DNA of 64,000 nt from Marsupella aquatica (Eukaryota; Plantae; Marchantiophyta), in NCBI GenBank assembly GCA_973895155.1, contig OZ316892.1:6493251-6557250 (forward strand). Reading direction: 5' to 3'. Below, one piece after another: positions 12,035 through 47,225 of this stretch. Positions within the stretch are counted from its first letter, which is position 1, and each line of letters begins with the position of its first letter. The notes beneath the pieces are model-generated. The model was not told the origin of the DNA. It was given only the letters and a program-made list of their open reading frames with translations, and ran no database searches. The position numbers and the translations under genes are program-made.

Positions 12035-12071
12035 GTGAGTAGAAGTCCCGGTAGAAGTCAATATATAAGCA

Positions 12072-17617: not shown

Positions 17618-17959
17618 CACTAGTGGAAAATAGTGTCCTTAATGACTAGAATGAGGACTGAAAAATGAGTCATATGTACCAATATATGACTAGAGCTTTT
17701 CTGTCATACCTGCCTCGTCTTTTAGGACAGTCAATTAAGACAAATGACTAAAACTCTCACCAGTCATTTATGGTAGTCCTAAATGACACAATATTTCTGA
17801 AATGACAGGTTGTCCTAAATGACTGAATGAACGGCCGTCAGTCATTTAGGTATGTCTTTAATGACACATATTTAAACAAATCATATTACAACACGTGGCA
17901 ACTACGCACGGTTGTCATTATATGTCATTTCAGACATGTCATAAATGACACAATAATAA

Positions 17960-18275
17960 ATCATTTAAGATGTCATTTAGTGTGTCATTGAAGGTGTCGT
18001 ACAGGGTGTCATTAAAAATGTCATACAAGGTGTCATACAAGGTGTCATTGAGGGTGTCATATAGGGTGTCATTGAGGATGTCATACAGAGTGTCATACAT
18101 GGTGTCATTGAGGGTGTCATTGAGGGTGTCATATATGGTGTCATTGAGGGTGTCATACATGGTGTCATTGAGGGTGTCATTGAGGGTGTCATACATGGTG
18201 TCATTGAGGGTGTCATACATGGTGTCATTGAGGGTATCATACATGGTGTCATTGAGGGTGTCATACAAGGTGTTT
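17960..18275. repeat. 12-bp subterminal tandem array (GGTGTCATTGAG / GGTGTCATACAT)
   Basis: Visible 12-nt periodicity; the GTCAT/ATGAC core is also dispersed through both subterminal regions, as expected of TnpA-binding repeats. Confidence 0.92.
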
Positions 18276-18560
18276 TTAAGTAATGTCATTTGGGATGTAT
18301 CTAAGAAGAGCTCATAGTTGTATTCAAAATCACATACAATGAATCCACTTAAAACCCTAAACAAAGACATCACTTTGCGCATCATCATTGTATTCAGAAA
18401 TTCACATTCCAACATTCACAAGCTCTAGTATAGAACAATTGAAAAAACATAAGTCTTTATGATGAAGTGATAGAAAGTACACATTTTTCACTCGCATGAG
18501 TGAAATAATGGTAACCAAAATATTCAAAAATTCTCTGTTCTACATGATCAGAGAAAATGT

Positions 18561-21545
18561 TCAACACTTCCGAAGAAACCTAGCATTCCACAATGTATTC
18601 ATTCCTAACACATTCCGTAAGCAGAGTTGTTTCTCTTCTTTGTTGGGCATTGGCAATGCTGCATCACCACAATACACTGCCTTAACTAATACTCGCACCC
18701 AATGACTCTCAATCATGACACAATGAAATTTATCCTCTCCTGGTAACCCTGTCACTTCACCTCTAGCAACAACTGTAGAGCGATCCACAATGCTTCGTAC
18801 TTCTACAGCATCTCCTTTTGAAAACTGCCACACAAAATTGTTAGGAAAAAATATTGTCTTGTAATACTGATTTGGGCATATCATCAATTTAAGAACATAA
18901 GCCAACTGAAAACAAATTCACCTTTGCTGCTGGATTTGGGGAGAGAACTGGTACTCGTTCACTAGGTGAGATAGTGATAGGGGTTGATTTCTTGAATCTC
19001 TTTGAAGGCCTAGGTGGTGTAGCCTCTTGTTCCTGAATTGCATTTGACATTATCTGTTCATCTGTGACAGCAATCTCATCGCTCTCACCATTACCAATGC
19101 TGCTTTGTACAACGCAAGGTTCCTGTAGTGCTCCCAAATTTTCTTCTCCCATACTTGGCTTTGGCTTCTGCCTTGTTAAAGTATCTGATTTCTCTCGCTG
19201 TGATACAGGATTCTCCCCTGAAGAAGCTACCACAAAACCAAACAATGAATGCTTAGAAAACTTCATTTTAAATTGAAAAATAAACTATTGCATATGTAAC
19301 ATGTTTAGAGTATAAGTTTGTATGTTCTTACCATCACCATCACCTGAGAAAGTAAGAGAACGTTTCCTGCTACTACCTTTAGGCTCAACCACCACCTTAG
19401 TAGCAATTGCATTTGATAATTGCATATGGAACTGATTCTGTTGATTTTGTGCAATGAAAGAAGTCATCATAGATGTCAAATTGTCCACTTTGAATTCAAG
19501 CTTGGTTAAATTCTCCACAGATTGTTCAAGCTTGAGTAATCGAGCTGGTTCCTCAATTGTAGTTTTCCTGGACAGTGGAGTCTACATACACAAACACACC
19601 ATACAATGTCAATCATCAATGATAATTTGAACATCATGGATAACTGATAATCAAAATTGAATATATACACAGGTTTTCATTACATACCGCTGATCCATGT
19701 GCAGATCCAATTCCAACAAAACTACTGCCTCGATGTTCACCACTGCCCATAGATGGACTGATCTGCACTAGGGGGACTGGACTACTAGACACAAGTTTTG
19801 ATATAACAGGGCTCGTCATTCCTTTTGCTTTCTGGAAACACATAATCACATTCAAAGCAATTGGAATATTAATGAGAACTCATCATGTCATTGTTTATTC
19901 CTATACTAGATAAACACTTCAATTCAAATGACAGTCTAGACCTGCAATGAGATGGACCATCTGAAGATTCTTACCAATCTTTTTTCTGCTCCAGCAGCCC
20001 CTCCTCTTCCAAAATGCTCTTTGTTCACCACTTCTGCCCTCCTTGCTTTCATCACAGCACTCCTTGCAAGCAAAGCAGGACTATCAAAATGATCCACCAG
20101 TCGTGCCCATTTTAATGGGTCAACATATTGAGGTCCTGGTTTGGAGCGATCACGTTTACATACATCCTTCCAATAAGTATTTAGTTTGTGACGTTCTCTT
20201 TTCAATAACGTCCGGCAGTGACTAATAAATTTCTTGTCAGACACTGACTGCTTATCTGGATACTCCCAATCTGCCTTCATCAATTTCTGCACATCCTCAA
20301 TTATGTTTGGATCTTGTTTGTTCCAATCAGGTTCTGATACATCAAAAAGCCTCAAGACATTGGCACGTAGCTCCTCCATCCAATATGGTTTATTAGGATG
20401 AGAATCATGAATATCATTGTCATGAATCTGAAAAAAACACCACAAATGATAGTCATCAACATTGGGAATGAAACAAACACCCAATTGCTTCTGAGTACAC
20501 AAACTGTAGGCCACAAATGTGAAATGTGCAATGAAAATCTTACCGTTATCAATTTTCCCTTCTTATTGTCAGCCCTTCTTGCACTACCGGTTCTCTGGAA
20601 TTGTTTTTTGGCTTGCCTAGATTCCCTGCGTTGCTCTGTTGCAGTCTTTCTTCCCTCTACATACACAATGAGCATCCAATATTGATCATCCACAATTGCA
20701 AATTGAGGGACAAGAAATATTACAATATAATAGGAGGACGCTTCATTGAATTTGACTTACCTGAACCCTGACTGGATGTCACTACTGCAGAGTGTCCAGA
20801 TTTCCCAATCGATGTTGATGGAACCACCACTATACACATGCAAACCACTGGAGTTATGAATCCAACATTCATATAGATCAACATTGAAAAATACATTGAA
20901 AATCTTTGAAATTACTTACATTCAAATAGCTGGCCAGTCACAGGGTCTTTGTAACATTGCACCATGCCACTCATGGAAGGTCCAACCTTTGTAGGGGTTT
21001 CTTTTGCATCTGCCAAGCTCTTAGATGGAGGTTGCAGATGTTCCTGTCCAGATCAAGTTAAAACGAATGTTATTAAACAGAATCATTACCAATGTCTATA
21101 GTTTCCTCATAATGTTGGTGAAATGTAATAGGAATCTCACCTTGGATGAACTTTCTGGTTTCTCATCTTCACTGTACTCAGCATCAGTGTCATAATCTGA
21201 TTCAGAGCCCTCATCACCAGACTCTGCCATACTCACTGAGGCAATTCTTGATAGTCTGGAACTCTGTCTTCTCTGTGTGGTAACCTCACTTCTAGGAGTT
21301 CGACGTGCACTTGTTTCCTTCTTGCACCCTACGGTCTGTGTTGCACCCAGTCTACATCAGAGAATATCAATGAATGAATGACAAGTATCAAAAACCAACT
21401 CATATTGCTGATGAGCAATATTAACACATCTTTGCACATTCAAAACAACATGCAAGATTATACTCACATGAGATTGAAATTTTCTCCAAATATCTCCCTG
21501 AATTTTCTATTGTTGTCTGCTACCTTCTTATTTCGTTCCTCCTCA
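18561..21545 (-). CDS. Multi-exon TnpA-like protein of CACTA-A1 (Transposase_24/Ptta region plus C-terminal Transposase_23-like domain)
   Basis: WEYP..CRTLLKRERHKL..PGPQYVDPLKWARLVDHF..HFGRGG; C-terminal VVARGEV..FHCVMI..WVRVLV..DAALPMP..LW; many short GT-AG introns; exon limits approximate. Confidence 0.8.
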
Positions 21546-21649
21546 TATGGAGGTATTCGCTGCATTCACTGCTAGACTATGGCATGCCATGTTAGTATGA
21601 TCCCACTCCCAACTAAATGAAACCGGACTGTACAGTATCTTCAAACCAT

Positions 21650-24600
21650 TTATTTCCTTTTATACTTTCTTTTTCCTTTGTCTCTAGTACTTGGTCCAGG
21701 CTCCTGTCTAGTTATACAGGCTTCTGCCAACTCTATGTGAAACTTAGCATTGTCATCCATAGTATCATGGAAATCAACTTCCATGTAATCACCCAGCACT
21801 CTTGTAGACCTGGATTCCTTGTGGAGGATTGTCCTCCATGCAATCCCCTTATCATTTGGGTAAAAAAACACCTGTTCTATCTGTCGTGGCAATACATAGT
21901 CCATTTTCTTGGAAGCACCCAGCTCCTTCTGAAAATTTACTTGCCACAATCCAGACGCATCATATCTCATACTTGCAGTGGCTTTGGGAGTCCAAGATGG
22001 GTTTGCCCACCTTCCTTTGAAAAGGACCACTTCCTTTATCAGAGGCCCATAGTTCAACACTAAGATGTCTGTCAACACCCCCACATATTGTATAGATTCA
22101 TCTACTGTTGCCCCTGACCTAATGACCTGCTTCTCAGTGAATGTACAAGCCATCCCAGAATCAAAAGTCTTGAACTCAGATGAGTCACAATCAATCAAGG
22201 AACCTAGTGATGGAATGGTCCTCCAATGGTGCCCATAGGCTCTGCAGGCCCTGTACCGCAGTGCCTTCAGACTAGGTGGTACACTATACGCTGCCAACAC
22301 CATTCGTTCAAACTCATTCTCAAAATTATGCCTTCTAATTGTCACTTCAAACCATTCTCTAAAAGGAGGCAACTCATCCAAATCAGAGGGATAAGGCACA
22401 GGATTCCTCCGATTTCCTGGATTCTTCATCCATTCTTTCCGGAAATCTGCTCTGTGCTTGGTAACTGCCTCATTTTGATCATCATAAACCCTGCATGGCA
22501 AGAATGACAGTCAGCTCCTAGGCCCACACAATTTCTGCTCAAAACTCAATTATGTTTAATAATAAACAACAGAGAACTTAACAATATAAACCATGCTCAT
22601 ACCTATACCATGGTTCCACCAGCTCTTCATTCTCCAGTATGTAATGATGCATAGCTATCATATCATTCCACTCCAAGGTGATCTGTTTTCCAGCTCCTTC
22701 CAAGACAATGCCTGCAACACCAGGATTCTCCTCCAAGTCCCATGTTCTCATTCCTGTCCCCTTAACATCGATCATGTATTCAGAAAGGAATCCTAAAGAT
22801 TCATCCAGAAGGTAGCCTTCAGCCATAGAAGCCTCTGGACGTGCCTTGTTTCAAACATAACCCTTCAAGGTCTTTAGATATCTTTCTATTGGGTACATCC
22901 ATCTAATGTTCACTGGACCATAGATGTCTAGTTCCTGAACCAGATGAATCAACAGATGGGTCATGACATCAAAGAAGCTTGGTGGGAAATGAATTTCCAT
23001 AAGGCAGAGTGTGAATGCAACATCCATCATCACAGAGTCGTACTGTGAGGGATCCCAAACCTTGGCACAGATGGTACGCCACACATTGCTCACTCTGGCT
23101 ATGGCCAACCGAACACCTTCATCAAGTAATCCCATTGTTGCCAATGGAAGGATTTGTTGCATGAGGTGATGGAAATCGTGAGATTTCAGCCCTGATAACT
23201 TCTTCTTAACTGTGACACATTTAGCCAGAGAACTGCTGAAACCAGTGGGCCCTTTAAAGGTCAACAATACCTCTAAGAACTTAGTCTTCTCTGTCTTACT
23301 GAGGCAGTATGGGGCTGGCGGCATGATCTTTGAATCTTTTTTTGGATCTGGATTTGGAACCAGCCACAGGTGTTCCCGCACGTCCATGACTTTCATGTCT
23401 TCTCGAACAGAAGGAGTATCCTTTGTCCCCAAAATAGTGTGCACAATGTTGTGTGCAAGATTCTTCTCACAGTGCATGGGATCCAAACAATGGTTGATGA
23501 GAAGTTTCTGCATTGGACGCACAGTTCAGTACAAACTAAGTTAGAATAAGAAATGTTACTCTTTGCTACTTAACATTAATACACACTGAGGGATTCAGTA
23601 TGGGAAACCAGATACTTACACTCCAGTACGGCAGCTTGTATAATCCAGTAACCCTCTTCACTCCATTCTTCTTTACTGGAGAGTTTTCATCATCCAGCGC
23701 ATTCCCTGGTTTCTTCTCCACATATTTAGCGGCATTTTCTCCCTAGCGTTTCCTATCAGAGCTGGACACTCTACACGGTGCAGCTCGTGCCTCTACCTCA
23801 CCATTAAAGTATTTTGCCACTTCCTCTGTGCGAAAATAGTGTCTCTGTGGTAACCAGCGACGATGGCCAGCAAACAGTAACTTGCCCAACTGTTTTGAAC
23901 CATGTGCCACACAATTTGGCCCACAAACCACACATCCTTTGTACCCTGCATGTTGTTGGCCAGAGACTAATCCATATGCAGGATAATCATTGATTGTCCA
24001 CAATACTGAAGCCCTTAGCTTGAACTCTTGCTGCAATCCTAGCCTTGGTAGAACATCAAAACAATCCACTCCTTCTGACCATAATGTCTCAAGATCATCC
24101 ACAAGTGGAGCCATGTATACATCAAATTGTTCCTCGCTTACAGACACAGGACCTGGAATTAGAAGAGCCAGCATGACAAAGAACTTCTTTGTGGAAAGCC
24201 AAGGAGGGATATTATAATTCAACAGCAGGATTGGCCATGTAGACCAGGCAGTAGAATTATTCCCAAATGGATTTACCCCATCAAGTGCCAATCCCATTCG
24301 CACATTCCTTGGCTCAGCAGCAAAAGCAGGGTCGATCTCTGTGTCCACATGTTTCCATGCCTTTGAATCTGCTGGATGTCGGACCATGTTGTCCTTGCTC
24401 TTGTTCTCATGATGCCAAGTCATTAGCTTAGATGTACCCTTAGTGGCATACAATCTCTTCAATCGAGGGATTATAGGGAAATATCTCAAGACCTTCACAG
24501 GTTGTAAAGAATTCCCCACTAACTTCATCTTTGGCTGATTACACTTGGAACAATTGTCCAACTCTGCAGTCTCATTTCTAAATAACATACATCCATTCTC

Positions 24601-25441
24601 ACAGACTGGGATTCTCTCATAGTCTAAACCCAATTTTCTCAGTAATTGTTTTGCAGCATATAGGTTTTTAGGGAGAGTGTGCTCTGTTGGCATTCCATGC
24701 TCAGTCAACAAAGACAGCATGGCATTCACTTCCCGTGTTCGAGAACCTATTGTTGTGACAGATGTTTAAAAACAACAACATGAAGGAAACTACATCTGTC
24801 TTACTGCCTGGAAATAAGGGTTTCATGGCTTCTTCTAAAGACCCTTGCAGAGGGACAGGATTTACAGGATGCCCTGCTGTAGGTGTGTCCTCAGCCCTGG
24901 TCTCAGCAAAGGGTGGATCTGCCTCATTCTCATCATTTTGAAACATTGAATCTATATCAAAAGGAGGATCATTATCCACATATTCGTCAGACTCTTCAGA
25001 AGCTCTTGCCAATGTCTCCTGAAGTAAAACTCTGACCTGCTCTTCAACATCTATTGATGGCTGGCCTGAGTGGAATGCCTCTCGAGACATTCTTGCCCTC
25101 AGTGCCTCTGGACCAGAGTTACGGATGTAATTGGATCTCCACTCCTCATCAAAAGAGTCTTCACCCTCTCCTACCCACACTCGACAGGCAGGGTAGCGGC
25201 CATATTTAAGAAGATGTTGTCGACTGGTCTTTCGAGTAGTCTTAACAATCCCTTTGCATTCCATGCAAGAGCAATACATTCTATGATCAACACTACCAGA
25301 GCAAGCTGTTTGTTCCCGAGCCCATAAGTTATCATCACGACGCTGTATTCGACGTGGATGGGAAAGAGGTAAACTTCTGAGGTTGTCTGCCTCTGTTGTA
25401 TATGCAGTGTTATGTGACCCAACCTGGCTAGAAGAAGCCAT
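21650..25441 (-). pseudogene. TnpD transposase of CACTA-A1 (transposase-associated domain, Transposase_21, DUF4218, DUF4216)
   Basis: CSCMEC..HLLKYG; RNVRMGLALDGVNPF; WTINDYPAYG; DPMHCEKN; GLKSHDFH; GPVNIRWMYPIERY; frameshift near 24730 and premature stops at 23743 and 22851. Confidence 0.95.
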
Positions 25442-25608
25442 GATTGCAGCACTACCTAATCAAAAACACAGTTGCACATCTTTCTTCTTTGACATCTTGT
25501 AGAGCATATGAATTGTTCTAGACAACTCCAAAACCCTTCCATACCATCTTCTAGAGCGTCATGTGAAGCAAATGTGTGCACAAGTGAAGAATTAGACATA
25601 CATTTGAG

Positions 25609-25904
25609 CTCGGGGGTTTCACTTCCACAAAAATGGCATATCACGTGCGACGAAGGATAGGGTCATTTTATTGGTTGTAAGGGAAGACTTAAGAATTTTT
25701 GTAGAAGAACAATAGAGTCTTTTTAATTCAATTTTGAGACTTATAAGAACATTAGGGCCTTTTTAATCCAATTTTTGGAATATTCCAAGAATATTCTAAC
25801 TTTATAGGGGTTAAAAAATAAAATTTTTTCTTACATTTTAGGGGGTCCAAGGCCTAAAAACGTCGCAGGTGATGGGGAGGTCCCCATGTAGTGAGACCCC
25901 CGAG
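25609..25904. mobile_element. 296-bp MITE, copy 2
   Basis: TIRs CTCGGGGGTTTCAC / GTGAGACCCCCGAG; perfect 8-bp TSD CATTTGAG; the orthologous empty site is present in A2 at 45910-45917. Confidence 0.97.
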
Positions 25905-26716
25905 CATTTGAGGTACTGGACTCCAACTGAGGTAAAGGCAGCTCCCACTTTAGCCCCGTTTGCCAATAGAATAGTTCATGCATGCCAACAACAGGTAAAC
26001 AGATGACATATTAGCAACTTGATCAGAAATTATTTACTTGGGTACGTTACCTAATCTCATTTCATATTGTAAGTGGCATTGGGTATTTGAAGGAGACCTG
26101 AATTGTACAAATCAAAATGACAAAAGTTTACAAAACCAAATAAAGGCCTACCTCAACCAGATTTAGGGCAAGGGTGTTCACAGTAGTCAGCAATCTCGGA
26201 CCCTTCAAAACAGTGAGTACAATAACAAACATTAATCATAATGTCCAACAATCCCCTCCTTCATTCTTTGTCTTTTGAATTCATTTGTTGAAATGATCCT
26301 CTTCATCAAGGCAGTTTGTTGTGGGCAAGTACTAGAATAGATTCCAAAAGGGTTTCATGTAATGTACATATTTAATTAAACATATAGTGTTTTTGTGCAG
26401 TAGTAAGAATGAAATACACACTCAGTCTTCAAAATTATCAAAAATGAGAAAGTTTGAGAAAGTTCAGAGACCCGGGTTGAGAGCGTTCTTAAGGCTGTGG
26501 GTTTAGAAAGGCAATACTACAATACTTGAAAGACATTAAGTGAAGTTTGCCTTCTTATGGCCAGATCCCTGAAAAGGGACAACAAAAATTTTAAGACCTT
26601 GGGTGGATTTTAGGTCTTGCTCAGGTCAGTGTGATGTTTTTTAGTTTTTTTGTTATGTATCTCCATTCAGGCTCTTCACATGTTTGCCACTGACACTCTT
26701 AACAGTCATCATACAA

Positions 26717-27163
26717 TCAGAATTGATACTGGTCTTTCTCCAGTAAGTGTTGCTCTACTCTAGGGCAAACAGTCTCAACCCCTGATCCCAAGACTGGCTC
26801 ATCATGGTGGAACATTATACAGGCACACCTCCTCTACAGCCTATTGTATCCATCCCGCCTATATATATCCCCTAGGCGCACTCGACATTTTGGGCAAAAA
26901 TCCTCACAACTGTGGATACAGGCAGAGTAGCATATCTGCTCTGGTTGTACCACTCCATTATCAACTGCCACAATACAAAAACCTATGGGCAAGGGTGGAG
27001 CATCCAGAGTAATGGGCCAACTGTACGTGTCTCTATGTACAGGCGAAAACTCCCATTGCACAGCAGAACTGGCAGGGACCAACCTCATTCCACTCAACTT
27101 CAGGCGTAGCCTCTCAGCTCTGCCTTCAAGGTCAGCTCCCAAGCTGCTACGCGTCCTTGGCAT
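26717..27163 (-). pseudogene. 148-aa Cys-rich cargo ORF of CACTA-A1, with one premature stop
   Basis: Homologous to the intact ORF 46779-47225; CAG>TAG at 26834. Confidence 0.65.
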
Positions 27164-27582
27164 CACTGTAACAGATACAAGAAGCAATAGCTTATCCAAC
27201 CCAAACGCTTCAATGAATTTCATGCAACAATTTAGCATTCAACTATTTCATACAATCACACAGTTTAGTCCATTTGAGTTTAGTCCATTAGACAGTGTAG
27301 TCCACTTCATACAATCAGACAATTTAGTCCTTTTCATACAATCAAACAGTTTAGTCCATTTCATACAATCATCCTACTTTAGTCCAATTCAGCTTAGTCC
27401 GTTGAATCCAACTTGACACAGTACTCCATTTTCATCCAACCAAAAACTCAGGTGCTCCACTGTACCCCTTTAGTCCATTTTTTTTATGTCCAGTATACTT
27501 CCATAAGTCCTTAGCCCATTTTAAGTTCAGTATACTTTGTACTATGCAGTGTTTTCTACACAACTGAAGGCTTAATTATGAT

Positions 27583-28281
27583 CTATTTGAAATCATGTGG
27601 TGGCACCTCAGAACCCTCTGGAATGACATGACAATTGCAGTACACCATACGCCATGGTCCAATATCCCACGTTTCTCTACCCTTCACCCCTCTCTTGAGG
27701 TGTTTGTCTGCCTCTGGTCCCTCATCCCTGCACCATGCACGAGGGCACCTATGACACTGGATAAATTCCCAGATGCCATCCCGATACTCCTTGCAAACAT
27801 CACAATAATGCCTTGGGCATATCAAAGCAGCGGGATGTGCATCTAAGTTCTCTGCATACCCCAAGAGAGGCAACTCCCTTGCCCTCAGTATGGTCCACAG
27901 ACAACCCACGTGATAGAAAGAAAAGCAATCATCTTGTGCACATTGAACCACAAGGGGCTCATCTGTAGTGGGCTTTAGGGTTCGGCCAAGTAGTCCACAA
28001 GCAAAGCAACGACCTCGGTTCTGCTGGCAGAGTTCACAAAGCCACTCCTTGGCCCAATCATGCCCTCTAGAAATGGCAATGCGTGTGCACTCAGACCCAT
28101 GGCCATCAGGCTCCTCGGGATCCCGCCCAACAACTAAGTAATGGAAATGACGACTACAAGGCCCATCGCAGAACAAAACAGTACCTCCCTCATCACATTC
28201 AAAACAACAAGGGGGATCCATGCGAAGGTGCTCTTTATGGGCAAACTTTGGATCTAGCCAGGCAGCAGCAACCCGTGCCAT
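27583..28281 (-). CDS. EDM2/NSD-type tandem PHD-finger protein (232 aa), cargo of CACTA-A1
   Basis: CFECDEGG..LFCDGPCSRHFH..C..WLCELC..CFACG.LG..VQC....C.SFYH.GC..LICPRHYCDVC..QCHRCPRAW..MVYC..HVI, the ligand spacing of the EDM2/NSD PHD cassette. Confidence 0.85.
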   Translation of the reverse strand: MARVAAAWLDPKFAHKEHLRMDPPCCFECDEGGTVLFCDGPCSRHFHYLVVGRDPEEPDGHGSECTRIAISRGHDWAKEWLCELCQQNRGRCFACGLLGRTLKPTTDEPLVVQCAQDDCFSFYHVGCLWTILRARELPLLGYAENLDAHPAALICPRHYCDVCKEYRDGIWEFIQCHRCPRAWCRDEGPEADKHLKRGVKGRETWDIGPWRMVYCNCHVIPEGSEVPPHDFK

Positions 28282-30509
28282 GCCTGATGTGATGTGTGGA
28301 TCTGCACAATTACCTTAAATATTACAAGAAGTCTATGGCATGGAGAAGGGCAACAAACAAGTACAAAGATGGTATGCTTAGTGTACTTACCGTAATCTGA
28401 GGTTTAAGTACACGTCAGAAGATGTCCTGCCCAACTCAGTCTCACGGAGTAGAAGCAATGTCAAAAATAACTTGGCTCTGGTTTATGTGTTGTGCGCAGA
28501 GAGCAACAAGTTAAGCATACTTGGTAAATGTAGTGATCAATCAAGGAATTACCAATGCTGCCTCTAAATTCCTATGTACTCGATTTCTATTAGAGGTGTT
28601 GAGAAACAAACAAAATATGAGAGATTGAGTAGAAGAGCAAACATGGCTCAATGCAGTGGCTTAGGTAGAACCTTAGCAACAACTCTTACTTTGTTTCATT
28701 TAACTCCACACAGAGCCGGGCTTTTTTCAGTGATGGATCAACAAAGACATATTATATTTGATGGGATCAACAGACAGACAAGGTAATTTTGAATAGCAAA
28801 AATTAATCCGAAAAAGTTTGCAATTCAAACACATCCTACAAATCACTCCCAACATCTCTTCTAAAGACAATGGGGATTTCTCAGATAATCTCAACAACAA
28901 ACCAATAACAACAGTAGACACACGACAATAATGCAAGCAAAACTGGAGCAAGCCCACCTCCACTGGACCCTTGTTAGGTAGCACCACTACCAAACAGAGG
29001 TCCAATCTTCCTTAGAATCCTCAAAATTGATGCAAGCGGAAATGCAGGCAGGAATGCAGCTCCAATCGCACCTCGACAGCAACTAGTCTCTGCAGATATG
29101 TAGGTCCAATGTGGTTCCAACACAAGTAAGATTTGGGAAGAGTCAAAACTATCATGGATCTCCTCACAGCGAGCAAACCTTAGCAGTCACACAATATTTA
29201 GTGGCTACTTTGAAAAAACATTAAAAAAGTCAATGCTCGCAGGTGAAGGAGTAGGATAGAAGGCAAATATATCAATTCTTTCCCTAAGCTTGAGCAAGCA
29301 ATTTGTCGGAAAAGCAACAGAGACCTACCGCTACATAGGAAATTAGATGTTGTCAAACAGAGCTTGGTCTTCAATTCAAAAGAGACTCGGGATAGACAGG
29401 ACCGCAACTTTTTGTGAGGGAGGGGGGCGCTGACTACAACGGATTCAAGATTAGCACAACTAACCTTGTAGGTTGTTGCAACTCCAATGTCCTCCTCCAA
29501 TTGGCTCAATGTTCAATTCGCAGGAAATGAGTATACTGCACGACATTACATAGTAAGCGCAGTATACCAAAAGACAAAACTTGGACCATGGCCAGACAAT
29601 GACAGAAACAAATCAGTGAACATTATACAGGGACTGTGAATCCCAAGCCAACAAAGCAACAATCCCAACCCTGTACAGAGATCAATAACATTCCAGCAGT
29701 GCAGGTCTGGTACAAAATGCTGGTATCTTTGTTTTTCATGATTGAAGAGCAAATTCCAGCAAACAAGGACTCGGAAATGAGAGACAGCAAAGTACCTGAT
29801 AGCAAGGTACCCGAGGTAGAACATTTAGGCAAGGGTCGGAAACAGGGACACACTTACACAAGCTCGATGTACATAACTGAATGGCAAATGAGGTTGGGAC
29901 TAATACTAGGCGCATTGGAAAGGGAGAACTTCAATTTACGATTGTAAGGGGCAGCATCCAGCAAAGAGGAAGCAAAAGCGCAAAATTTGCAGCATGGCAA
30001 AGGGGACAGGAAGCATGAAATCAAAGCATGGCCGGCAGGGGGAAGAAGCACAGCAGGTGGACAGAGAATGCACAACTATCCAAGATACCTCAGAGACGCG
30101 CTATATTCAATGTGGATGAAATGGTAGCAGGTAGCGGCAGTGGTGTTGCAGCAACTCCCTCCGTAGCTCTAGCCAAAGGCGCAGAGCGGACCTCTCGTTC
30201 ACGTTGCAGCTCCAACATGTAGGACGGTTAGCATTGCCCAAGTGCGCGTAGCTTGAGCTCCCTTTCACCTGGTTTTTCCCTAATGACAACCCGCGGCCAA
30301 AGCTAGTCCCAAACGCAAATGCCTCCCTATTCACAGTGCACAGCTTCGAATCAATCCCACCGTCCTCACCGATCAGTCCCACCTCGCGAATGGCTTGCGG
30401 ATGGAATGCAGAGACTAAGCGCAAGAGACCGGGCCACACTCCATCCACACTGAAAAGATGTGGAGCAGCACGCACAACCTTCAAGAAACATAGGCGCAAC
30501 GGACCTCAA

Positions 30510-30770
30510 CTCCTTTGCCCTAAAACGCAACAGCGACCTCACAGCGGCCTCACAGCAGTGACCTTGTAGCAGCGACCTCACAACAGTGCCCTTGCACCTC
30601 AAATCACTGCTCAGGACCGAGCTTGCGCGCAGCAGCAACCTTGCAGCACCGAGCTTGCGTGAAGCAGCAACCTTGCACTTCAACTCACCGCTCAGCCCCG
30701 ATCTTCAGCAGCGACCTTGCACCTCAACTCGCAGCAGTGACCTGACTCGCACCTCCACTCGCTGCTCAAG
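30510..30770. repeat. Degenerate short repeats (GCAGCGACCTTGCACCTCAA-like) near the putative 5' end of the A1 transcript
   Basis: CAGCGACCT / CAGCAACCTTGCA motif recurs about 8 times. Confidence 0.65.
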
Positions 30771-31529
30771 TTCACGAGAATACCTAACTCCCAACGTGAA
30801 CTTGTGACTTGTGTGACCGGTGTGACTGAACATTTTCTGAACCCAGGTCTGAATTTCTTATGGGAAAATGGGATCCAATGTGGCCAGGCATTGTTTCGTG
30901 GGATCCAACGAAGATAGGGATGACACATGATTGGCAAATAAGGCTTTGGGACACCAACGGGAATTTTACTGGGATGTTGAGGGTAGTAATGGAGTCAATC
31001 TCGGTTCCATAATACCCCTCTAACATTATTATCCCCTCGCCAATCAATTTTAGGAGATGGAGGAAGTTTGGGGCCAAATGCTTTTTTGATGACACAAATA
31101 CTTGTCACAAGTATGTATTACCATTTACAATAACCAGTGACTCAAAAACTTAATGTACTGGTGGCCTTTGAAACCCATTGATGTGGAAACCTAGGTGCCA
31201 AAATTGCCAAATAACTGTATATGCATGTAACACAAAACAAATTACAAACATATGCATAGGTTTAGGATGTACATCCTCATTGACACGTCACAATTACCTA
31301 AGTGAGGAAGTCATTTGGTGGACATTCTCATAAAATTAGTCACTCACATATTAAATCACTAATCTCATAGTCCTCAGTCCTAGGGTTGACAACATAAATG
31401 ACTTGTTTTGATGTCATTGCCCAAAACCTAAACTCACGGCACTCCATAATAGCCAAAATGCAATACATTCTTTGTGGGTAGCATCCTTAATGGTGGGCTC
31501 CTATCACCAATCTGACCAATCCCGCATCC

Positions 31530-32430
31530 AAGCACCCAAAGAGTCATATTGTCCATGGCATGCGTGACTGCCGCATTGACATCAACAATGACTCATTTTC
31601 ACGTCAAATGCATAAATGACGTATTAGAGGACACACAAATGACTCTAAATCCTTTCCAAATGACCAAATGTGAGTGGTTTGCACCCCTTCAAGCAAATGA
31701 CTCCAAAGTCATACAACTTGGGAGTGTTTTGCCCAAAGTTGGGCCGTGCCCTTCCTTGGTGCAAAAAGTTGGCTACAAAAAACCTTTAGGAGGCAAAGTG
31801 CCATAACTAGTGGCGCAAGGTTTGAGAGTACCCTATCCCGCACCATGTGGAGTGGATAGCATGCCTAGTGGCCGGCTACTATCACAAATATTGCCAATCA
31901 GCCCCCGAAGGCCCAAACAAGTCATATTACCCATGGCATGCATGACTGCAACATTGACATCATGAATGACTGAGTTTTGTGTCATTTGCACAAATGACGT
32001 CTCTTGGCACTCCCAAAATGACAAAAACCCTTAGTCATGCGCACAAATGACTCTAAATCCTTTCCAAATGACCAAATGTGAGTGGTTTGCACCCCTTCAA
32101 GCAAATGACTCCAAAGTCATACAACTTGGGAGTGTTTTGCCCAAAGTTGGGCCGTGCCCTTCCTTGGTGCAAAAAGTTGGCTACAAAAAACCTTTAGGAG
32201 GCAAAGTGCCATAACTAGTGGCACAAGGTTTGAGAGTACCCTATCCCGCACCATGTGGAGTGGATAGCATGCCTAGTGGCCGGCTACTATCACAAATATT
32301 GCCAATCAGCCCCCGAAGGCCCAAACAAGTCATATTACCCATGGCATGCATGACTGCAACATTGACATCATGAATGACTGAGTTTTGTGTCATTTGCATG
32401 AATGACGTCTCTCGGCACTCCCAAAATAAC
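31530..32430. repeat. 408-bp subterminal tandem repeat (~2.2 copies)
   Basis: CTATCCCGCACCATGTGGAG at 31833 and 32241 (period 408); rich in ATGAC/GTCAT. Confidence 0.92.
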
Positions 32431-33027
32431 AATAGCAAATACAGGCATCTAGCACCTAAACCCTAAACCTACACCAGATAATATTATCTGTTAAGTCTCT
32501 AAATATATTTAAAATCTAATTTGTGTGTGCCCCTAGTCTTTATAGTACCATGCGTGTTGGATAGCTAATATATAATACCCTACAAAGTTAAATCATATAC
32601 TAAAACCCTAGACCTCAAAATAGTCATATATTGTTTATCATGTCATTTATCACTTTAGGTTTAAATGACTACTAACATTTTTAAACATTGATATTTCCAT
32701 ATTTGTTTTAGTAGTCATTAGTTACTGTCATCCTAAATTACTTCCCAAATGTCAAACATTGATATGACAAGGTTATTGTCATTTGTGTCATTGACAAAGA
32801 TTGTCCAAAATGACTACAACTCGTTGGTGTTGTCATTATAGTAGTCACGGTCATTTGGCTCATTGGTTTAAATGACCCTATTGCAATTATTAGTCATTTT
32901 TTTCACCCTGTCATTATAGACAGTCATTTATGTGTCATTCATGCCCTGTCATTAAAATATATTGTCATTTGGGCACACCAGTCATATGTGTCATAGTCAT
33001 AAAAGGCCCCATTTTCTACTAGTGAGG

Positions 33028-37897: not shown

Positions 37898-38239
37898 CAC
37901 TAGTGGAAAATAGTGTCTTTAATGACTAGAATGAGGACTGAAAAACGAGTCATATGTACCAATATATGACTAGAGATTTTCTGTCATACCTGCCTCGTCT
38001 TTTAGGACAGTCAATTAAGACAAATGACTAAAACTCTCACCAGTCATTTATGGTAGTCCTAAATGACACAATATTTCTGAAATGACATGTTGTCCTAAAT
38101 GACTGAATGAACGGTCGTCAGTCATTTAGGCATATCTTTAATAACACATATTTAAACAAATCATATTACAACACGTGGCAACTACACATGGTTGTCATTA
38201 TATGTCATTTCAGACATGTCATAAATGACACAATAATAC

Positions 38240-38555
38240 ATCATTTAAGGTGTCATTTAGTGTGTCATTGAAGGTGTCGTACATGGTGTCATTAAAAATA
38301 TCATAAAAGGTGTCATACAAGGTGTCATTGAGGGTGTCATTGAGGGTGTCATACATGGTGTCATTGAGGGTGTCATACATGGTGTCATTGAGGGTATCAT
38401 ACATGGTGTCATTGAGGATGTCATACATGGTGTCATTTAGGGTGTCATACATGGTGTCATTGAGGGTGTCATACAGGGTGTCATACATGGTGTCATTGAG
38501 GGTGTCATTGAGGGTGTCATACATGGTGTCATTGAGGATGTCATACAGGGTGTTT
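38240..38555. repeat. 12-bp subterminal tandem array of A2
   Basis: Same units as 17960-18275 in a different order. Confidence 0.92.
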
Positions 38556-38911
38556 TTAAGTAATGTCATTTGGGATGTATCTAAGAAGAGCTCATAGTTA
38601 TATTCAAAATCACATACAATGAATCCACTTAAACCCTAAACAAAGACATCACTTTGTGCATCATCATTGTATTCAGAAATTCACACTCCAACATTCACAA
38701 GCTCTAATATAGAATAATTGAAAAAACAGAAGTCATCATTGTATTCAGAAATTCACATTCCGACATTCACAAGCTCTAGTATAGAACAATTGAAAAAACA
38801 GAAGTCTTTATGATGAAGTGATAGAAAGTACACATTTTTCACTCGCATGAGTGAAACAATGGTAACCAAAATATTCAAAAATTCTCTGTTCTACATGATC
38901 AGAGAAAATGT

Positions 38912-41895
38912 TCAACACTTTCGAAGAAACCTAACATTCCACAATGTATTCATTCCTAACACATTCCGTAAGCAGAGTTGTTTCTCTTCTTTGTTGGGCA
39001 TTGGCAATGTTGCATCACTACAATACACTGCCTTAACTGATACTCGCACCCAAGGACTCTCAATCATGACATAATGAAATTTATCCTCTCCTGGTAACCC
39101 TGTCACTTCACCTCTAGCAACAACTGTAGAGCGATCCACAACGCTTCGTACTTCTACAGCATCTCCTTTTGAAAACTGCCACACAAAATTGTTAGGACAA
39201 AATATTGTCTTGTAGTACTGATTTGGGCATATCATCAATTTAAGAACATAAACCAACTGAAAACAAATTCACCTTTGCTGCTGGATTTGGGGAGAGAACT
39301 GGTCCTCGTTCACTAGGTGAGATAGTGATAGGGGTTGTTTTCTTGAATCTCTTTGAAGGCCTAGGTGGTGTAGCCTCTTGTTCCTGAATTGCATTTGACA
39401 CTATCTATTCATCTGTGATAGCAATCTCATCACTCTCACCATTACCAATGCTGCTTTGTACAATGCAAGGTTCTTGCAGTGCTCCCAAATTTGCTTCTCC
39501 CATACTTGGCTTTGGCTTCTACCTTGTTAAAGTATCTGATTTCTCTCGCTGTGATACAGGATTCTCCCCTGAAGAAGCTACCACAAAACCAAACAATGAA
39601 TGTTTAGAAAACTTCATTCCAAATTGAAAAATAAATTATTGCATATGTAACATGTTTAGAGTATAAGTTTGTATGTTCTTACCATCACCATCACTTGAGA
39701 AAGTAAGAGAACGTTTCCTGCTACTACCTTTAGGCTCAACCACCACCTTAGTAGCAATTGCATTTGATAATTGCATATGGAACTGATTCTGTTGATTTTG
39801 TGCAATGAAAGAAGTCATCATAGATGTCAAATTGTCCACTTTGAACTCAAGCTTGGTTAAATTCTCCACAGACTGTTCAAGCTTGAGTAATCAAGCTGGT
39901 TCCTCAATTGTAGTTTTCCTGGACAGTGGAGTCTACATACACAAACACACCATACAATGTCAATCATCAATAATAATTTGAACATCATGGATAACTTATA
40001 ATCAAAATTGAATATATATACAGGTTTTCATTACATACCGCTGATCCATGTGCAGATCCAATTCCAACAAAACTATTGCCTCGATGTTCACCACTGCCCA
40101 TAGATGGACTGATATGCACTGGGGGGACTGGACTACTAGACACAAGTTTTGATATAACAGGGCTTGTCAATCCTTTTGCTTTCTGGAAACACATAATCAC
40201 ATTCAAAGCAATTAGAATATTAATGAGAACTCATCATGTCATTGTTTACTCCTATACTAGATAAACACTTCAATTCAAATGACAATCTAGACCTGCAGTG
40301 AGATGGACCATCTGAAGATTCTTACCAATCTTTTTTCTGCTCCAGCAGCCCCTCCTCTTCCAAAATGCTCTTTGTTCACCACTTCTGCCCTCCTTGCTTT
40401 CATCACAGCACTCCTTGCAAGCAAAGCAGGACTATCAAAATGATCCACCAGTCGTGCCCATTTCAATGGGTCAACATATTGAGGTCCTGGTTTGGAGCGA
40501 TCACGTTTACATACATCCTTCCAATAAGTATTTAGTTTGTGACATTCTCTTTTCAATAACGTCCGACAGTGACTAATAAATTTCTTGTCAGACACTGACT
40601 GCTTATCTGGATACTCCCAATCTGCCTCCATCAATTTCTGCACATCCTCAATTATGTTTGGATCTTGTTTGTTCCAATCAGGTTCTGATACATCAAAAAG
40701 CCTCAAGACATTGGCACGTAGCTCCTCCATCCAATATGGTTTATTAGGATGAGAATCATCAATATCATTGTCATGAATCTGATAAAAACACCACAAATGA
40801 TAGTCATCAATATTGAGAATGAAACAAACACCCAATTGCTTCTGAGTACACAAACTGTAGGCCACAAATGTGAAATGTGCAATGAAAATCTTACCGTTAT
40901 CAATTTTCCCTTCTTATTGTCAGCCCTTCTTACACTACCGGTTCTCTGGAATTGTTTTTTGGCTTGCCTAGATTCCCTGCGTTGCTCTGTTGCAGTCTTT
41001 CTTCCCTCTACATACACAATGAACATCCAATATTGATCATCCACAATTGTAAAATGAGGGACAAGAAATATTACAATATAATAGGAGGACGCTTCATTGA
41101 ATTTGACTTACCTGAACCCTGACTGGATGTCACTACTGTAGAGTGTCCAGATTTCCCAATCGATGTTGATGGAACCACCACTATACACATGCAAACCACT
41201 GGAATTATGAATCCAACATTCATATAGATCAACATTGAAAAATACATTGAAAATCTTTGAAATTACTTACATTCAAATAGCTGGCCAGTCACAGGGTCTT
41301 TGTAACATTGCACCATGCCACTCATGGAAGGTCCAACCTTTGTAGGGGTTTCTTTTGCATCTGCCAAGCTCTTGGATGGAGGTTGCAGATGGACCTGTCC
41401 AGATCAAGTTAAAACCAATGTTATTAAACAGAATCACTACCAATGTCTATAGTTTCCTCATATTGTTGGTGAATGTAATAGGAATCTCACCTTGGATGAA
41501 CTTTGTGGTTTCTCATCTTCACTGTACTCAGCATCAGTGTCATAATCTGATTCAGAGCCCTCATCACCAGACTCTGCCATACTCACTGAGACAATTCTTG
41601 ATAGTCTGGAGCTCTGTCTCCTCTGTGTGGTAACCTCACTTCTAGGAGTTCGACGTGCACTTGTTTCCTTCTTGCGCCCTATGGTCTGTGTTGCACCCAA
41701 TCTACATCAGAGAATATCAATGAATGAATGACAAGTACCAACAACCAACTCATATTGCTGATGAGCAATATTAACACATCTTTGCACATTCAAAACAACA
41801 TGCAAGATTATACTCACATGAAATTGAAATTTTCTCCAAATATCTCCCTGAATTTTTTATTGTTGTCTGCTACCTTCTTATTTTGTTCCTCCTCA
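38912..41895 (-). CDS. Multi-exon TnpA-like protein of CACTA-A2
   Basis: Near-identical to 18561-21545; exon limits approximate. Confidence 0.78.
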
Positions 41896-41999
41896 TATGG
41901 AGGTATTCGCTGCATTCACTGCTAGACCATGGCATGCCATGTTAGTATGATCCCACTATCAACTAAATGAAACCGGACTGTACAGTATCTTCAAACCAT

Positions 42000-44900
42000 T
42001 CATTTCCTTTTATACTTTCTTTTTCCTTTGTCTATAGTACTTGGTCCAGGCTCCTGTCTAGTTATACAGGCTTCTGCCAACTCTATGTGAAACTTAGCAT
42101 TGTCATCCATAGTATCATGGAAATCAACTTCCATGTAATCACCCAACACCCTTGTAGATCTGGATTCCTTGTGGAGGATTGTCCTCCATGCAATCCCCTT
42201 ATCATTTGGGTAAAAAAACACCTGTTCTATCTGTCGTGGCAATACATAGTCCATTTTCTTGGAAGCACCCAGCTCCTTCTGAAAATTTACTTGCCACAAT
42301 CCAGACGTATCATATCTCATACTTGCTGTGGCTTTGGGAGTCCAAGATGGGTTTGCCCACCTTCCTTTGAAAAGGACCACTTCCTTTATCAGAGGCCCAT
42401 AGTTCAACACTAAGATGTCTGTCAACACCCCCACATATTGTACAAATTCATCTACTGTTGCCCCTGACCTAATGACCCGCTTCTTAGTGAATGTACAAGC
42501 CATCCCAGAATCAAAAGTCTTGAACCCAGATGAGTCACAATCAATCAAGGAACCTAGTGATGGAATGGTCCTCCAATGGTGCCCATAGGCTCTGCAGGCC
42601 CTGTACCGTAGTACCTTCAGACTAGGTGGTACACTATATGCTGCCAACACCATTCGTTCAAACTCATTCTCAAAATTATGCCTTCTAATTGTCACTTCAA
42701 ACCATTCTCTAAAAGGAGGCAACTCATCCAAATCAGAGGGATAAGGCACAGGATTCCTCCGATTTCCTGGATTCTTCATCCATTCTTTCCGGAAATCTGC
42801 TCTGTGCTTGGTAACTGCCTCCTTTTGATCATCATAAACCCTGCATGGCAAGAATGACAGTCAGCTCCTAGGCCCACACAATTTTTGCTCAAAACTCAAT
42901 TCTGTTTAATAATAAACAACAGAGAACCTATACCATGGTTCCACCAGCTCTTCATTCTCTAGTATGTAATGATGCATAGCTATCATATCATTCCACTCCA
43001 AGGTGATCTGTTTTCCAGCTCCTTCCAAGACAATGCCTGCAACACTAGGATTCTCCTCCAAGTCCCATGTTCTCATTCCTGTCCCCTTAACATCGATCAT
43101 GTATTCAGAAAGGAATCCTAAAGATTCATCTAGAAGGTAGCCTTCAGCCATAAAACCTCTGGACGTGCCTTGTTTCGAACATAACCCTTCAAGGTCTTTA
43201 GATATCTTTCTATTGGGTACATCCATCTAATGTTCACTGGACCACAGATGTCTAGTTCCTGAACCAGATGAATCAACAGATGGGTCATGACATCAAAGAA
43301 GCTTGGTGGGAAATGAATTTCCATAAGGCAGAGTGTGAATGCAACATCCATCATCACAGAGTCGTACTGTGAGGGATCCCAAACCTTGGCACAGATGGTA
43401 CGCCACACATTGCTCACTCTGGCTATGGCCAACCGAACACCTTCATCAAGTAATCCCATTGTTGCCAATGGAAGGATTTGTTGCATGAGGTGATGGAAAT
43501 CGTGAGATTTCAGCCCTGATAACTTCTTCCTAACTGTGACACATTTAGCCAGAGAACTGCTGAAACCAGTGGGCCCTTTAAAGGTCAACAATACCTCTAA
43601 GAACTTAGTCTTCTCTGTCTTACTGAGGCAGTATGGGGCTGGCGGCATGATCTTTGAATCTTTTTTAGGATCTGGATTTGGAACCAGCCACAAGTGTTCC
43701 CACACGTCCATGACTTTCATGTCTTCTCGAACAGAAGGAGTATCCTTTGTCCCCAAAATAGTGTGCACGATGTTGTGTGCAAGATTCTTCTCACAGTGCA
43801 TGGGATCCAAACAATGGTTGATGAGAAGTTTCTGCATTGGACGCACAGTTCAGTACAAACTAAGTTAGAATAAGAAATGTTACTCCTTGCTACTTAACAT
43901 TAATACACACTGAGGGATTCAGTATGGGAAACCAGATACTTACACTCCAGTACGGCAGCTTGTATAATCCAGTAACCCTCTTCACTCCATTCTTCTTTAC
44001 TGGAGAGTTTTCATCATCCAGCGCATTCCCTGGTTTCTTCTCCACATATTTAGCGGCCTTTTCTCCCCAACGTTTCCTATCAGAGCTGGACACTCTACAC
44101 GGTGCATCTCGTGCCTCTACCTCACCATTAAAGTATTTTGCCACTTCCTCTTTGCGAAAATAGTGCCTCTGTGGTAACCAGCGATGATGGCCAGCAAACA
44201 GTAACTTGCCCAACTGTTTTGAACCATGTGCCACACAATTTGGCCCACAAACCACACATCCTTTGTACCCTGCATGTTGTTGGCCAGAGACTAATCCATA
44301 TGCAGGATAATCATTGATTGTCCACAATACTGAAGCCCTTAGCTTGAACTCTTGCTGCAATCCTAGCCTTGGTAGAACATCAAAACAATCCACTCCTTCT
44401 GACCATAATGTCTCAAGATCATCCACAAGTGGAGCCATGTATACATCAAATTGTTCCTCGCTTACAGACACAGGACCTGGAATTAGAAGAGCCAGCATGA
44501 CAAAGAACTTCTTTGTGGAAAGCCAAGGAGGGATATTATAATTCAACAGCAGGATTGGCCATGTAGACCAGGCAGTAGAATTATTCCCAAATGGATTTAC
44601 CCCATCAAGTGCCAATCCCATTCGCACATTCCTTGGCTCAGCAGCAAAAGCAGGGTCGATCTCTGTGTCCACATGTTTCCATGCCTTTGAATCTGCTGGA
44701 TGTCGGACCATGTTGTCCTTGCTCTTGTTCTCATGATGCCAAGTCATTAGCTTAGATGTACCCTTAGTGGCATACAATCTCTTCAATCGAGGGATTATAG
44801 GGAAATATCTCAAGACCTTCACAGGTTGTAAAGAATTCCCCACTAACTTCATCTTTGGCTGATTACACTTGGAACAATTGTCCAACTCTGCAGTCTCATT

Positions 44901-45762
44901 TCTAAATAACATACATCCATTCTCACAGACTGGGATTCTCTCATAGTCTAAACCCAATTTTCTCAGTAATTGTTTTGCAGCATATAGGTTTTTAGGGAGA
45001 GTGTGCTCTGTTGGCATTCCATGCTCAGTCAACAAAGACAGCATGGCATTCACTTCCCGTGTTCGAGAACCTATTGTTGTGACAGATGTTTAAAAACAAC
45101 AACATGAAGGAAACTACATCTGTCTTACTGCCTGGAAATAAGGGTTTCATGGCTTCTTCTAAAGACCCTTGCAGAGGGACAGGATTTATAGGATGCCCTG
45201 CTGTAGGTGTGTCCTCAGCCCTGGTCTCAGCAAAGGGTGGATCTGCCTCATTCTCATCATTTTGAAACATTGAATCTATATCAAAAGGAGGATCATTATC
45301 CACATATTCGTCAGACTCTTCAGAAGCTCTTGCCAATGTCTCCTGAAGTAAAACTCTGACCTGCTCTTCAACATCTATTGATGGCTGGCCTGAGTGGAAT
45401 GCCTCTCGAGACATTCCTGCCCTCAGTGCCTCTGTACCAGAGTTACGGATGTAATTGGATCTCCACTCCTCATCAGAAGAGTCTTCACCCTCTCCTACCC
45501 ACACTCGATAGGCAGGGTAGCGGCCATATTTAAGAAGATATTGTCGACTGGTCTTTCGAGTAGTCTTAACAATCCCTTTGCATTCCATGCAAGAGCAATA
45601 TATTCTATGATCAGCACTACCAGAGCAAGCTGTCTGTTCCCGAGCCCATAAGTTATCATCACGACGTTGTATTCGACATGGATGGGAAAGAGGTAAACTT
45701 CTCAGGTTGTCTGCCTCTATTGTATGTGCAGTGTTATGTGACCCAGCCTGGCTAGAAGCCAT
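42000..45762 (-). pseudogene. TnpD transposase of CACTA-A2
   Basis: Same motifs as A1; frameshift near 45054 (shared with A1), 1-nt deletion near 43155, and a deletion damaging the splice donor near 42925. Confidence 0.95.
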
Positions 45763-46778: not shown

Positions 46779-47225
46779 TCAGAATTGATACTGGTCTTTC
46801 TCCACTAAGTGCTGCTCTACTCTAGGGCAAACAGTCTCAACCCCTGGTCCCAAGATTGGCTCATCATGGTGGAACATTATACAGGCACACCTCCTTTGCA
46901 GTCTAATGTGTCCATCCCGCCTATATATATCCCCAGGGCGCACTCGACATTTTGGGCAAAAATCCTCACAACTATGGATACAGGCAGAGTAGCAGATCTG
47001 CTGTGGTTGTACCACTCCATTATCGACTGCCACAATACAAAAACCTATGGGCAAGGGTGGAGCATCCAGAGTAATGGGCCGACTATACGTGTCTCTGTGT
47101 ACAGGCAAAAACTCCCATTGCATAGCAGAACTGGCAGGGACCAACCTCATTCCACTCAGCTTCAGGCGTAGCCTCTCAGCTCTACCTTCAAGGTCAGCTC
47201 CCAATCTGCTGCGCGTCCTTGGCAT
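46779..47225 (-). CDS. 148-aa Cys-rich cargo protein of unknown function (intact in A2)
   Basis: MPRTRS..CYSACIHSCEDFCPKC..CAC..C; same length in both A copies. Confidence 0.65.
   Translation of the reverse strand: MPRTRSRLGADLEGRAERLRLKLSGMRLVPASSAMQWEFLPVHRDTYSRPITLDAPPLPIGFCIVAVDNGVVQPQQICYSACIHSCEDFCPKCRVRPGDIYRRDGHIRLQRRCACIMFHHDEPILGPGVETVCPRVEQHLVEKDQYQF

Follow-up and report, generated by a model that had tools for sequence, protein, structure and literature searches.

A CACTA transposon family of the liverwort Marsupella aquatica carries a stand-alone EDM2-family triple-PHD gene

Introduction

Within the 64,000 nucleotides of Marsupella aquatica DNA analysed here (the window), two related CACTA transposons each contain a short gene whose product is little more than a cassette of PHD fingers like that of EDM2. 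The locus raises the question of what a cut-and-paste element would do with a histone-tail reader, where such a gene came from and whether it has been kept by selection. Transposons with chromatin genes are already known; published work describes TET/JBP genes in fungal EnSpm/Plavaka elements (PMC12730594) and SET and PAG1-3 genes in red-algal Plavaka and HarbingerS elements (10.1101/2025.02.11.637652). The elements described here resemble EnSpm/Plavaka, HarbingerS and Rehavkus in being cut-and-paste elements that keep chromatin-related cargo. In those systems the cargo consists of writers or erasers, or of a single finger fused to the transposase, whereas here the reader stands alone, has several fingers and belongs to an anti-silencing family of plants. 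No transposon-borne EDM2-type PHD gene was found in the full-text literature, a scope that leaves aside subscription papers and Repbase entries, and the term 'PHD' is absent from the main text of the Arabidopsis transposon-product atlas (PMC13547354).

Organization of the CACTA elements

Both PHD genes lie in elements of one CACTA family (family A), each complete with its ends and target duplications.

17618..33024, minus strand: copy 1 of CACTA family A, with CACTAGT at its ends and AGG as 3-bp target duplication; interrupts a P-like transposase region
31634..32432: tandem array of two 408-bp units, close to where copy 1 ends upstream
27583..28281, minus strand: stand-alone EDM2-family triple-PHD gene, copy 1; ATG at 28281, TAG at 27583, 232 aa, intact
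26717..27163, minus strand: ORF2, second accessory gene, copy 1; cysteine-rich, stop at codon 110
21650..25441, minus strand: TnpD transposase, copy 1; Transpos_assoc, Tnp2, DUF4218 and DUF4216 domains, two predicted introns, a frameshift shared with copy 2 and two stops
18561..21400, minus strand: predicted TnpA-like gene of copy 1 with several exons; the name is based on its position and layout, bounds approximate
17971..18264: 12-bp subterminal repeat array, downstream end of copy 1
37898..54623, minus strand: CACTA element, family A, copy 2; CACTAGT termini, target duplication AAT; inserted in CACTA family B
51914..53695: tandem array of 4.4 units of 412 bp, close to where copy 2 ends upstream
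47432..48130, minus strand: stand-alone EDM2-family triple-PHD gene, copy 2; ATG at 48130, TAG at 47432, 232 aa
46779..47225, minus strand: ORF2, copy 2; intact, 148 aa
42000..45762, minus strand: TnpD, copy 2; the shared frameshift and a 1-base deletion
38912..41750, minus strand: predicted TnpA-like gene of copy 2 with approximate bounds; one of its predicted exons contains two stops
38241-38553: 12-bp subterminal repeat array, downstream end of copy 2

The CACTAGT motif is present at all four element ends, and 14 of the first 16 bases match. From the upstream end the four genes run on one shared strand in the order PHD, ORF2, TnpD and multi-exon TnpA-like gene. The upstream end consists of the 408/412-bp tandem array followed by approximately 3 kb of unalignable DNA leading to the PHD gene, and at the downstream end the 12-bp subterminal repeats follow the TnpA-like gene. 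This arrangement is like that of maize En/Spm in its CACTA ends, 3-bp target duplication, subterminal repeats and a TnpD gene followed by a multi-exon second gene, and differs from it in having two extra conserved ORFs between the presumed promoter and TnpD. In maize En/Spm, a single spliced transcript yields both TnpA and TnpD. Acceptor-like AG dinucleotides are located 1-20 nt ahead of the ATG of each of PHD, ORF2 and TnpD.

The family A copies are mosaics, being 93-100% alike over TnpD, TnpA and the downstream end and 89-94% alike over ORF2 and the PHD gene, and their two halves are therefore of differing age. Comparison of the two elements suggests that the regulatory half of the family has been swapped or is changing fast. 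The presumed promoter and leader (28400-31400 in copy 1, 48250-51800 in copy 2) cannot be aligned between these otherwise related copies.

TnpD was identified by a Pfam match to Tnp2 (PF02992, E 1.2e-70). Two of the breaks in its reading frame have GT..AG ends and were read as introns, and the interpretation of all TnpD breaks as lesions was rejected. The TnpA-like gene has no Pfam match, and is a multi-exon gene in the expected place. ORF2 likewise matched no Pfam family and yielded a structure model too poor for use (pLDDT 44); its one relative, P0018, is 57% identical, and the two window copies differ with a dN/dS of 0.27 (p = 0.003). Pfam was also applied to 69 further short frames, namely 67 from a set of 87 and two others, with 35 of the 69 situated upstream of the PHD genes; the outcome was a single match below threshold and no BRCT or F-box domain. 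When metagenomes were scanned, none of 223 pattern matches was a relative of the PHD gene, and TnpD recovered six distant loci at 33-37% identity, at which neither the PHD gene nor ORF2 was detected at E under 0.26.

The PHD gene and selection acting on it

An earlier note on this DNA had described a 232-aa stand-alone ORF, essentially the PHD cassette alone, in both family A copies, and had put the copies 22 residues apart without indel or stop. Both descriptions held when the two ORFs were aligned, with the genes on the minus strand; the plus strand is closed by many stops at both sites. The copies differ at 65 nucleotides, 39 of them at third codon positions, and contain no indels relative to one another. 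Both proteins exceed the curated Pfam threshold for PHD_NSD, with E values of 4.5e-8 and 3.3e-9. The ORF is intronless, and in both copies, as in the stand-alone relatives P0001 and P0002, it ends right after the cassette. The candidate reading of the ORF as an internal exon was ruled out: the upstream DNA is unalignable between the copies, and the relatives share the places of start and stop. An extra in-frame exon may nevertheless lie upstream, because a more distant acceptor keeps phase in both copies.

Comparison of copy 1 with copy 2 gave a dS of 0.30 and a dN of 0.05 for the PHD gene, and the resulting dN/dS between the two window copies was 0.17 (p = 7.5e-12), which is not near 1. For codons 1-50 the ratio was 0.03. 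The codon pattern of the gene is beyond chance.

The earlier note had also argued from the contrast of an intact reader with broken transposase genes. Both TnpD genes are indeed broken, sharing a 1-base frameshift near 24730 and 45054 respectively, with additional stops at 23745 and 22853 in copy 1 and an additional 1-base deletion near 43152 in copy 2. The argument from intactness failed, however. The other reading frames of the elements hold six private lesions in 2 x 5034 nt, a rate at which 0.83 lesions are expected in the 1.4 kb of the two 699-base PHD ORFs; since the probability of finding none is 0.43, the intactness of the PHD ORFs is no evidence of selection, and the private changes of copy 1 look neutral, as described below.

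Variation across the family was assessed from 760 contig pieces aligned to copy 1, originating from four runs in two studies, of which one run may be the same source as the window. Contigs without the frameshift base of TnpD are present in three of the four runs, and other family members therefore keep the TnpD frame at that point. For the PHD gene, variants were considered as the best-supported 40 of 108, with a threshold of 5% for indels, and contigs lose rare variants. These 40 comprise 25 silent and 15 replacement changes and no stops, and no indel reached 5% among the 760 pieces. The 29 variants among the best 40 of 108 that segregate in the family comprise 22 silent and 7 replacement changes with no stops, a ratio far from neutral expectation (p = 1.8e-9). 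A change was regarded as private to copy 1 where the family letter stood at at least 80% in at least three runs; by this definition copy 1 carries 8 replacement and 3 silent private changes among the best 40 of 108 variants, which fits neutrality (p = 0.72). The contrast between private (8:3) and segregating (7:22) variants is itself significant (p = 0.009), and therefore the family was selected and copy 1 is now decaying. The PHD gene is thus a long-kept accessory gene of the CACTA family, under purifying selection in the family; that selection did not act on copy 1, whose PHD gene is now decaying. Damaged copies of the gene also exist in the family, because one listed piece contains two gap letters inside the PHD ORF, several pieces have loose ends there, and contigs drop rare variants.

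These results bear on two further proposals, a neutral passenger of the Pack type and a copy that the host has domesticated at this locus. Capture of host fragments by CACTA elements is described in the cited part of PMC13317346, and an intact PHD ORF beside a dead TnpD would suit either proposal. A passenger, however, would be expected to resemble a host gene closely and to have a dN/dS of about 1, whereas the values found were approximately 30% identity to the best host relatives recovered and 0.17. A domesticated copy would avoid replacements, in contrast to the 8:3 excess among the private changes of copy 1. Both proposals are largely refuted and are retained as very improbable.

Zinc ligands and predicted fold

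Of the 24 ligand positions of the EDM2 cassette, 23 are kept as C or H. Fingers 1 and 2 retain all of their ligands with the spacing seen in EDM2. The claim that the zinc ligands are kept was accurate as a comparison of the two copies, which are identical at these positions, and fails in the third finger, where the H..C pair of EDM2 corresponds to C184..E187 and one ligand is lost in all transposon versions. The last ligand position of finger 3 is variable among transposon-type proteins, and the Marchantia and Closterium EDM2 rows vary there too. The C-terminal tail is present in both copies, its pattern being W-R-M-V-Y-C-x-x-H-V-I-P and so slightly different from the W..MVYC.xHxI..P given previously. 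Finger 1 keeps the strand GG-x-x-[LI]-x-C-D-G and an upstream Asp, which we take to be the H3-tail contacts of readers of K4-unmethylated tails; the Trp that presumably belongs to H3K4me3 cages is absent from this finger.

AlphaFold modelling of the PHD protein gave a pLDDT of 70 and a pTM of 0.68, with the other four models under 50. NSD tandem PHD fingers are the closest structures, also by Foldseek, with Z of 6.9-7.4 and an rmsd of 2.5-3.7 across 78-95 residues; complexes of NSD3 with H3 and H3K9me3 peptides are among them. Values of Z under 8 are middling and common by the scale of the tool, and a match of this predicted model speaks to fold and not to function. A single-sequence search of the PDB with the PHD protein returned no match at E up to 1. 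Binding of the PHD protein to H3 tails is predicted and likely.

Relatives and origin of the cassette

The nearest relatives are themselves stand-alone proteins: P0001 (247 aa, 70% identical to the PHD protein) and P0002 (226 aa, 57% identical), both known as proteins alone, and a third, P0003, represented by a 128-aa piece. In both P0001 and P0002 the aligned start is a Met, and the ends lie no more than one residue away from that of the PHD protein. Because they share start and end, the stand-alone form of the cassette appears from these sequences to be old.

A word search returned 12 longer matches at 25-32% identity, all 12 carrying PHD_NSD together with PF26055, a domain combination typical of proteins labelled EDM2-like in the sources. 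HMMER returned 236 matches at E up to 0.001, and the 18 named clusters among the 23 looked up are all green-plant proteins, several of them named EDM2-like. NSD2/3 were found only by a profile that included EDM2 rows and not by a single query. The best matches are EDM2-family relatives, so the cassette is not unrelated to EDM2/NSD PHDs, and by sequence comparison the PHD protein has EDM2-family ancestry. Its PHD cassette is colinear with that of Arabidopsis EDM2 (of the ASI1-AIPP1-EDM2 complex), the ligands of fingers 1 and 2 are equally spaced in the two, and identity to full-length family members is 25-32%. In contrast to EDM2, the CACTA protein consists of the cassette alone, with an altered third finger, and is encoded by an intronless ORF in a transposon.

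Among the seven best non-transposon matches, six are liverwort proteins (Riccia, Marchantia, Calypogeia) and one is from Artemisia; the matches thus point in their own right to a liverwort host. In the six liverwort proteins the cassette is located at or near the C-terminus and methyltransferase-like motifs are missing. This group of methyltransferase-less liverwort EDM2 paralogues comprises:

Marchantia Mp1g03210 and Mp4g03050
Riccia R1sor_003797
Mapa_015239
Calypogeia CAM6087769/CAM6107985

These are host proteins of 280-768 aa with the third finger intact, whereas the CACTA version has 232 aa and has lost a ligand. No paper on the function of Mp1g03210 was found. The transposon protein and the liverwort paralogues have in common the motifs D-P-P-x-C, R-[YH]-F-H, C-P-R-H and Q-C-R-R-C-P. 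A 12-residue spacer in finger 3 occurs in all six transposon-type rows, in 6 of 8 paralogue rows and in 3 of 3 rows of the P0041 cluster, and elsewhere in 1 of 128 scorable rows (10 being unscorable). Five diagnostic columns are for affinity to the liverwort paralogues and two against, spacer and diagnostic features alike having been picked after the sequences were seen. Overall identity does not separate the groups (29.7% to the paralogues, 28.4% to other family members).

The cassette comparison drew on the 155 of 171 proteins with enough of the cassette, and its trees contain no NSD row. A mixture-model tree of 33 chosen rows grouped the transposon rows with the liverwort paralogues (support 97/91), a grouping that was no longer resolved when three long rows were removed. 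FastTree applied to all 155 rows drew the transposon rows to long algal branches, and AU tests left canonical liverwort EDM2 or deep rows as sister unrejected (p 0.12 and 0.18). In the 33-row tree the transposon branch is very long, at 4.9 changes per column. Because the trees disagree, a liverwort EDM2 paralogue without the methyltransferase-like domain can be named only as the likely donor, in preference to EDM2 itself. The proposal of a captured EDM2-like reader thus survives in that an EDM2-family cassette does reside in the transposon, and is amended as to the donor, which looks like a methyltransferase-less paralogue.

Further short forms of the cassette were observed. P0041, P0167 and P0168 form a short lineage of up to 325 aa with the liverwort-paralogue signature, far from the CACTA PHD gene, and by their sequences possibly represent a second capture. 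Grasses have short EDM2-like proteins that are nearly the cassette alone, and mosses have methyltransferase-less forms (P0118, P0129, P0143, P0144, P0072, P0092). These grass and moss forms join the liverwort paralogues at 96/97 in the 33-row tree, and do not after the three long rows are dropped.

The loss of the third-finger ligand and the very long branch mean that the specificity of the cassette may have shifted since capture. Taken further, the same features, together with the departed tail motif of EDM2 and the lack of any solved-structure match to a single sequence query, would suit a former reader that now serves as a zinc-finger scaffold and, within the cycle of the element itself, binds RNA, DNA or a partner other than a histone. 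This appears improbable, as the strand of finger 1 to which we assign the H3 contacts is among the best-kept parts of the protein (dN/dS 0.03 over codons 1-50).

Possible roles of the PHD protein

The explanation we favour, tentatively and at somewhat short of an even chance, is that the PHD protein acts as a histone-tail adaptor that helps the element transcript to extend, within silenced chromatin, as far as the transposase genes downstream. Following capture of the cassette, probably from one of the methyltransferase-less EDM2 paralogues of liverworts, a single upstream promoter would supply a leader spliced to PHD, ORF2, TnpD or TnpA, by analogy with En/Spm. The cassette would dock on histone H3 tails in the silenced chromatin of the element, and host EDM2-pathway factors would be brought in or displaced such that read-through is favoured. 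Since no DNA-binding domain was recognised by Pfam in the PHD protein, family specificity would need a partner, either the TnpA-like protein or ORF2. The TnpD and TnpA messages would have to pass two upstream ORFs, which is the kind of job that EDM2 does: it is described as bound to chromatin with H3K9me2 and as suppressing proximal polyadenylation together with AIPP1 and ASI1 (PMC7529245, PMC7472560, PMC9292364, PMC10241880).

In favour of the read-through adaptor, four genes face one way with the PHD gene first. Against it, the RFD-like and methyltransferase-like regions of EDM2, the acidic run before finger 1 and the TP-x-R-D-H-x-x-F-P tail are all absent, the PHD protein has no effector domain, and some plant PHD fingers never bind H3, as the cited part of PMC9640981 reports. 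The mark to be read is also in doubt. H3K9me2, named in the earlier note, is an assumption carried over from Arabidopsis; the passage cited on Marchantia describes transposons bearing H3K9me1/H3K27me1 or H3K27me3 and leaves H3K9me2 undiscussed (10.1101/827881). EDM2 itself acts on transposons in both directions and represses Mu1 (PMC3632883, in the part cited).

Retention of the reader with every effector region dropped would equally be expected of a decoy, a truncated reader in trans competition with the host paralogue, or with some other reader involved in silencing, that would weaken silencing generally. That EDM2 and ELP1 aid repression of the DNA transposon Mu1 (PMC3632883, same part) lends this some substance. 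An identity of approximately 30% to any host-type relative found is, however, low for a mimic of one protein, and a decoy without specificity would benefit every element at the host's expense, in contrast to VANC, which is sequence-specific (PMC10398659). We regard a decoy as improbable.

A targeting subunit would not need an effector domain either. Chromodomains steer chromovirus integrases and the PHD finger of RAG2 does so for RAG1, and a histone-tail reader could similarly tether the TnpD/TnpA complex to repeat-rich chromatin, where insertion sites are harmless. Both family A copies (2 of 2) sit in other transposons. In the cited parts of the literature, Rehavkus transposases contain PHD fingers (PMC6446971) and one clade unites EnSpm with Transib/RAG1 (PMC12730594). 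With n = 2 and a window made almost entirely of transposons, however, the surroundings and survival bias already predict nesting, and targeting, the main rival of the read-through adaptor, is judged possible and rather unlikely.

If the read-through adaptor is correct, an EDM2-family reader kept by selection would represent a second counter-silencing route, through the histone code and RNA processing. To our knowledge, the DNA-recognising VANCs are the only well-studied plant transposon counter-silencing proteins. The resemblance to VANDAL/VANC is one of layout, no homology being claimed: both have a separate transposon gene beside the transposase, and rapidly varying tandem repeats in non-coding DNA (here the 408/412-bp arrays). 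As the cited part of PMC10398659 describes, VANC binds the DNA of its own element sequence-specifically and removes silent marks, whereas the CACTA protein has a host-derived histone-reader fold. A broader and doubtful proposal is that liverwort transposons have made a host EDM2-type anti-silencing reader into a minimal selfish module, in which the first gene licenses read-through to the transposase in silenced chromatin as a feedback switch like that of EDM2 on IBM1, and that capture from this host subfamily happened on more than one occasion (P0041 and P0168 share its signature). As a 232-aa intronless product, the protein is directly testable on peptide arrays and in Marchantia, and it brings an uncharacterised group of liverwort EDM2 paralogues to attention for transposon control.

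Other elements in the window

The elements surrounding and interrupting family A are as follows.

35609-62325: CACTA family B; ends CACTAGTACAT/CACTACTACAT, target duplication GTT; family A copy 2 nested inside
about 16403-17617 and 33025-35608: P-element-like transposase; weak TNP-like_GBD match (E 0.0075), below cut-off
14283-14580, 25609-25905 and 61062-61358: copies of a 297-bp MITE; terminal inverted repeats, roughly 8-bp target duplications, 95-98% alike

The P-element-like transposase is split by family A copy 1 and by family B, giving a three-level nest. The transposase gene of family B starts at 56597 with an exon for a zinc finger. The exon after it encodes a SET domain (Pfam E 3.7e-8) and spans 56971-57954, unless it runs on to a stop of its own at 57984, and the Tnp2 exons come next; the splice phases permit an in-frame SET-TnpD product or alternative products. 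The 297-bp MITE has a very high summed contig depth and, on its sequence features, is provisionally classed as hAT-like. Its copy at 25609-25905 is inserted in family A copy 1 between ORF2 and TnpD, and the empty site is present in contigs of three of the four runs. An ORF at 12069-12539 encodes an RNase H1 N-terminal (Cauli_VI) domain (E 2.4e-12) and adjoins unexplained ORFs at 12825-13322 and 14886-15575. Lastly, a diverged inverted pair at 891-1154 and 8325-8588 (73% over 278 bp), with a 53-bp tandem array at 4182-4350 between its members, perhaps marks the ends of an old element.
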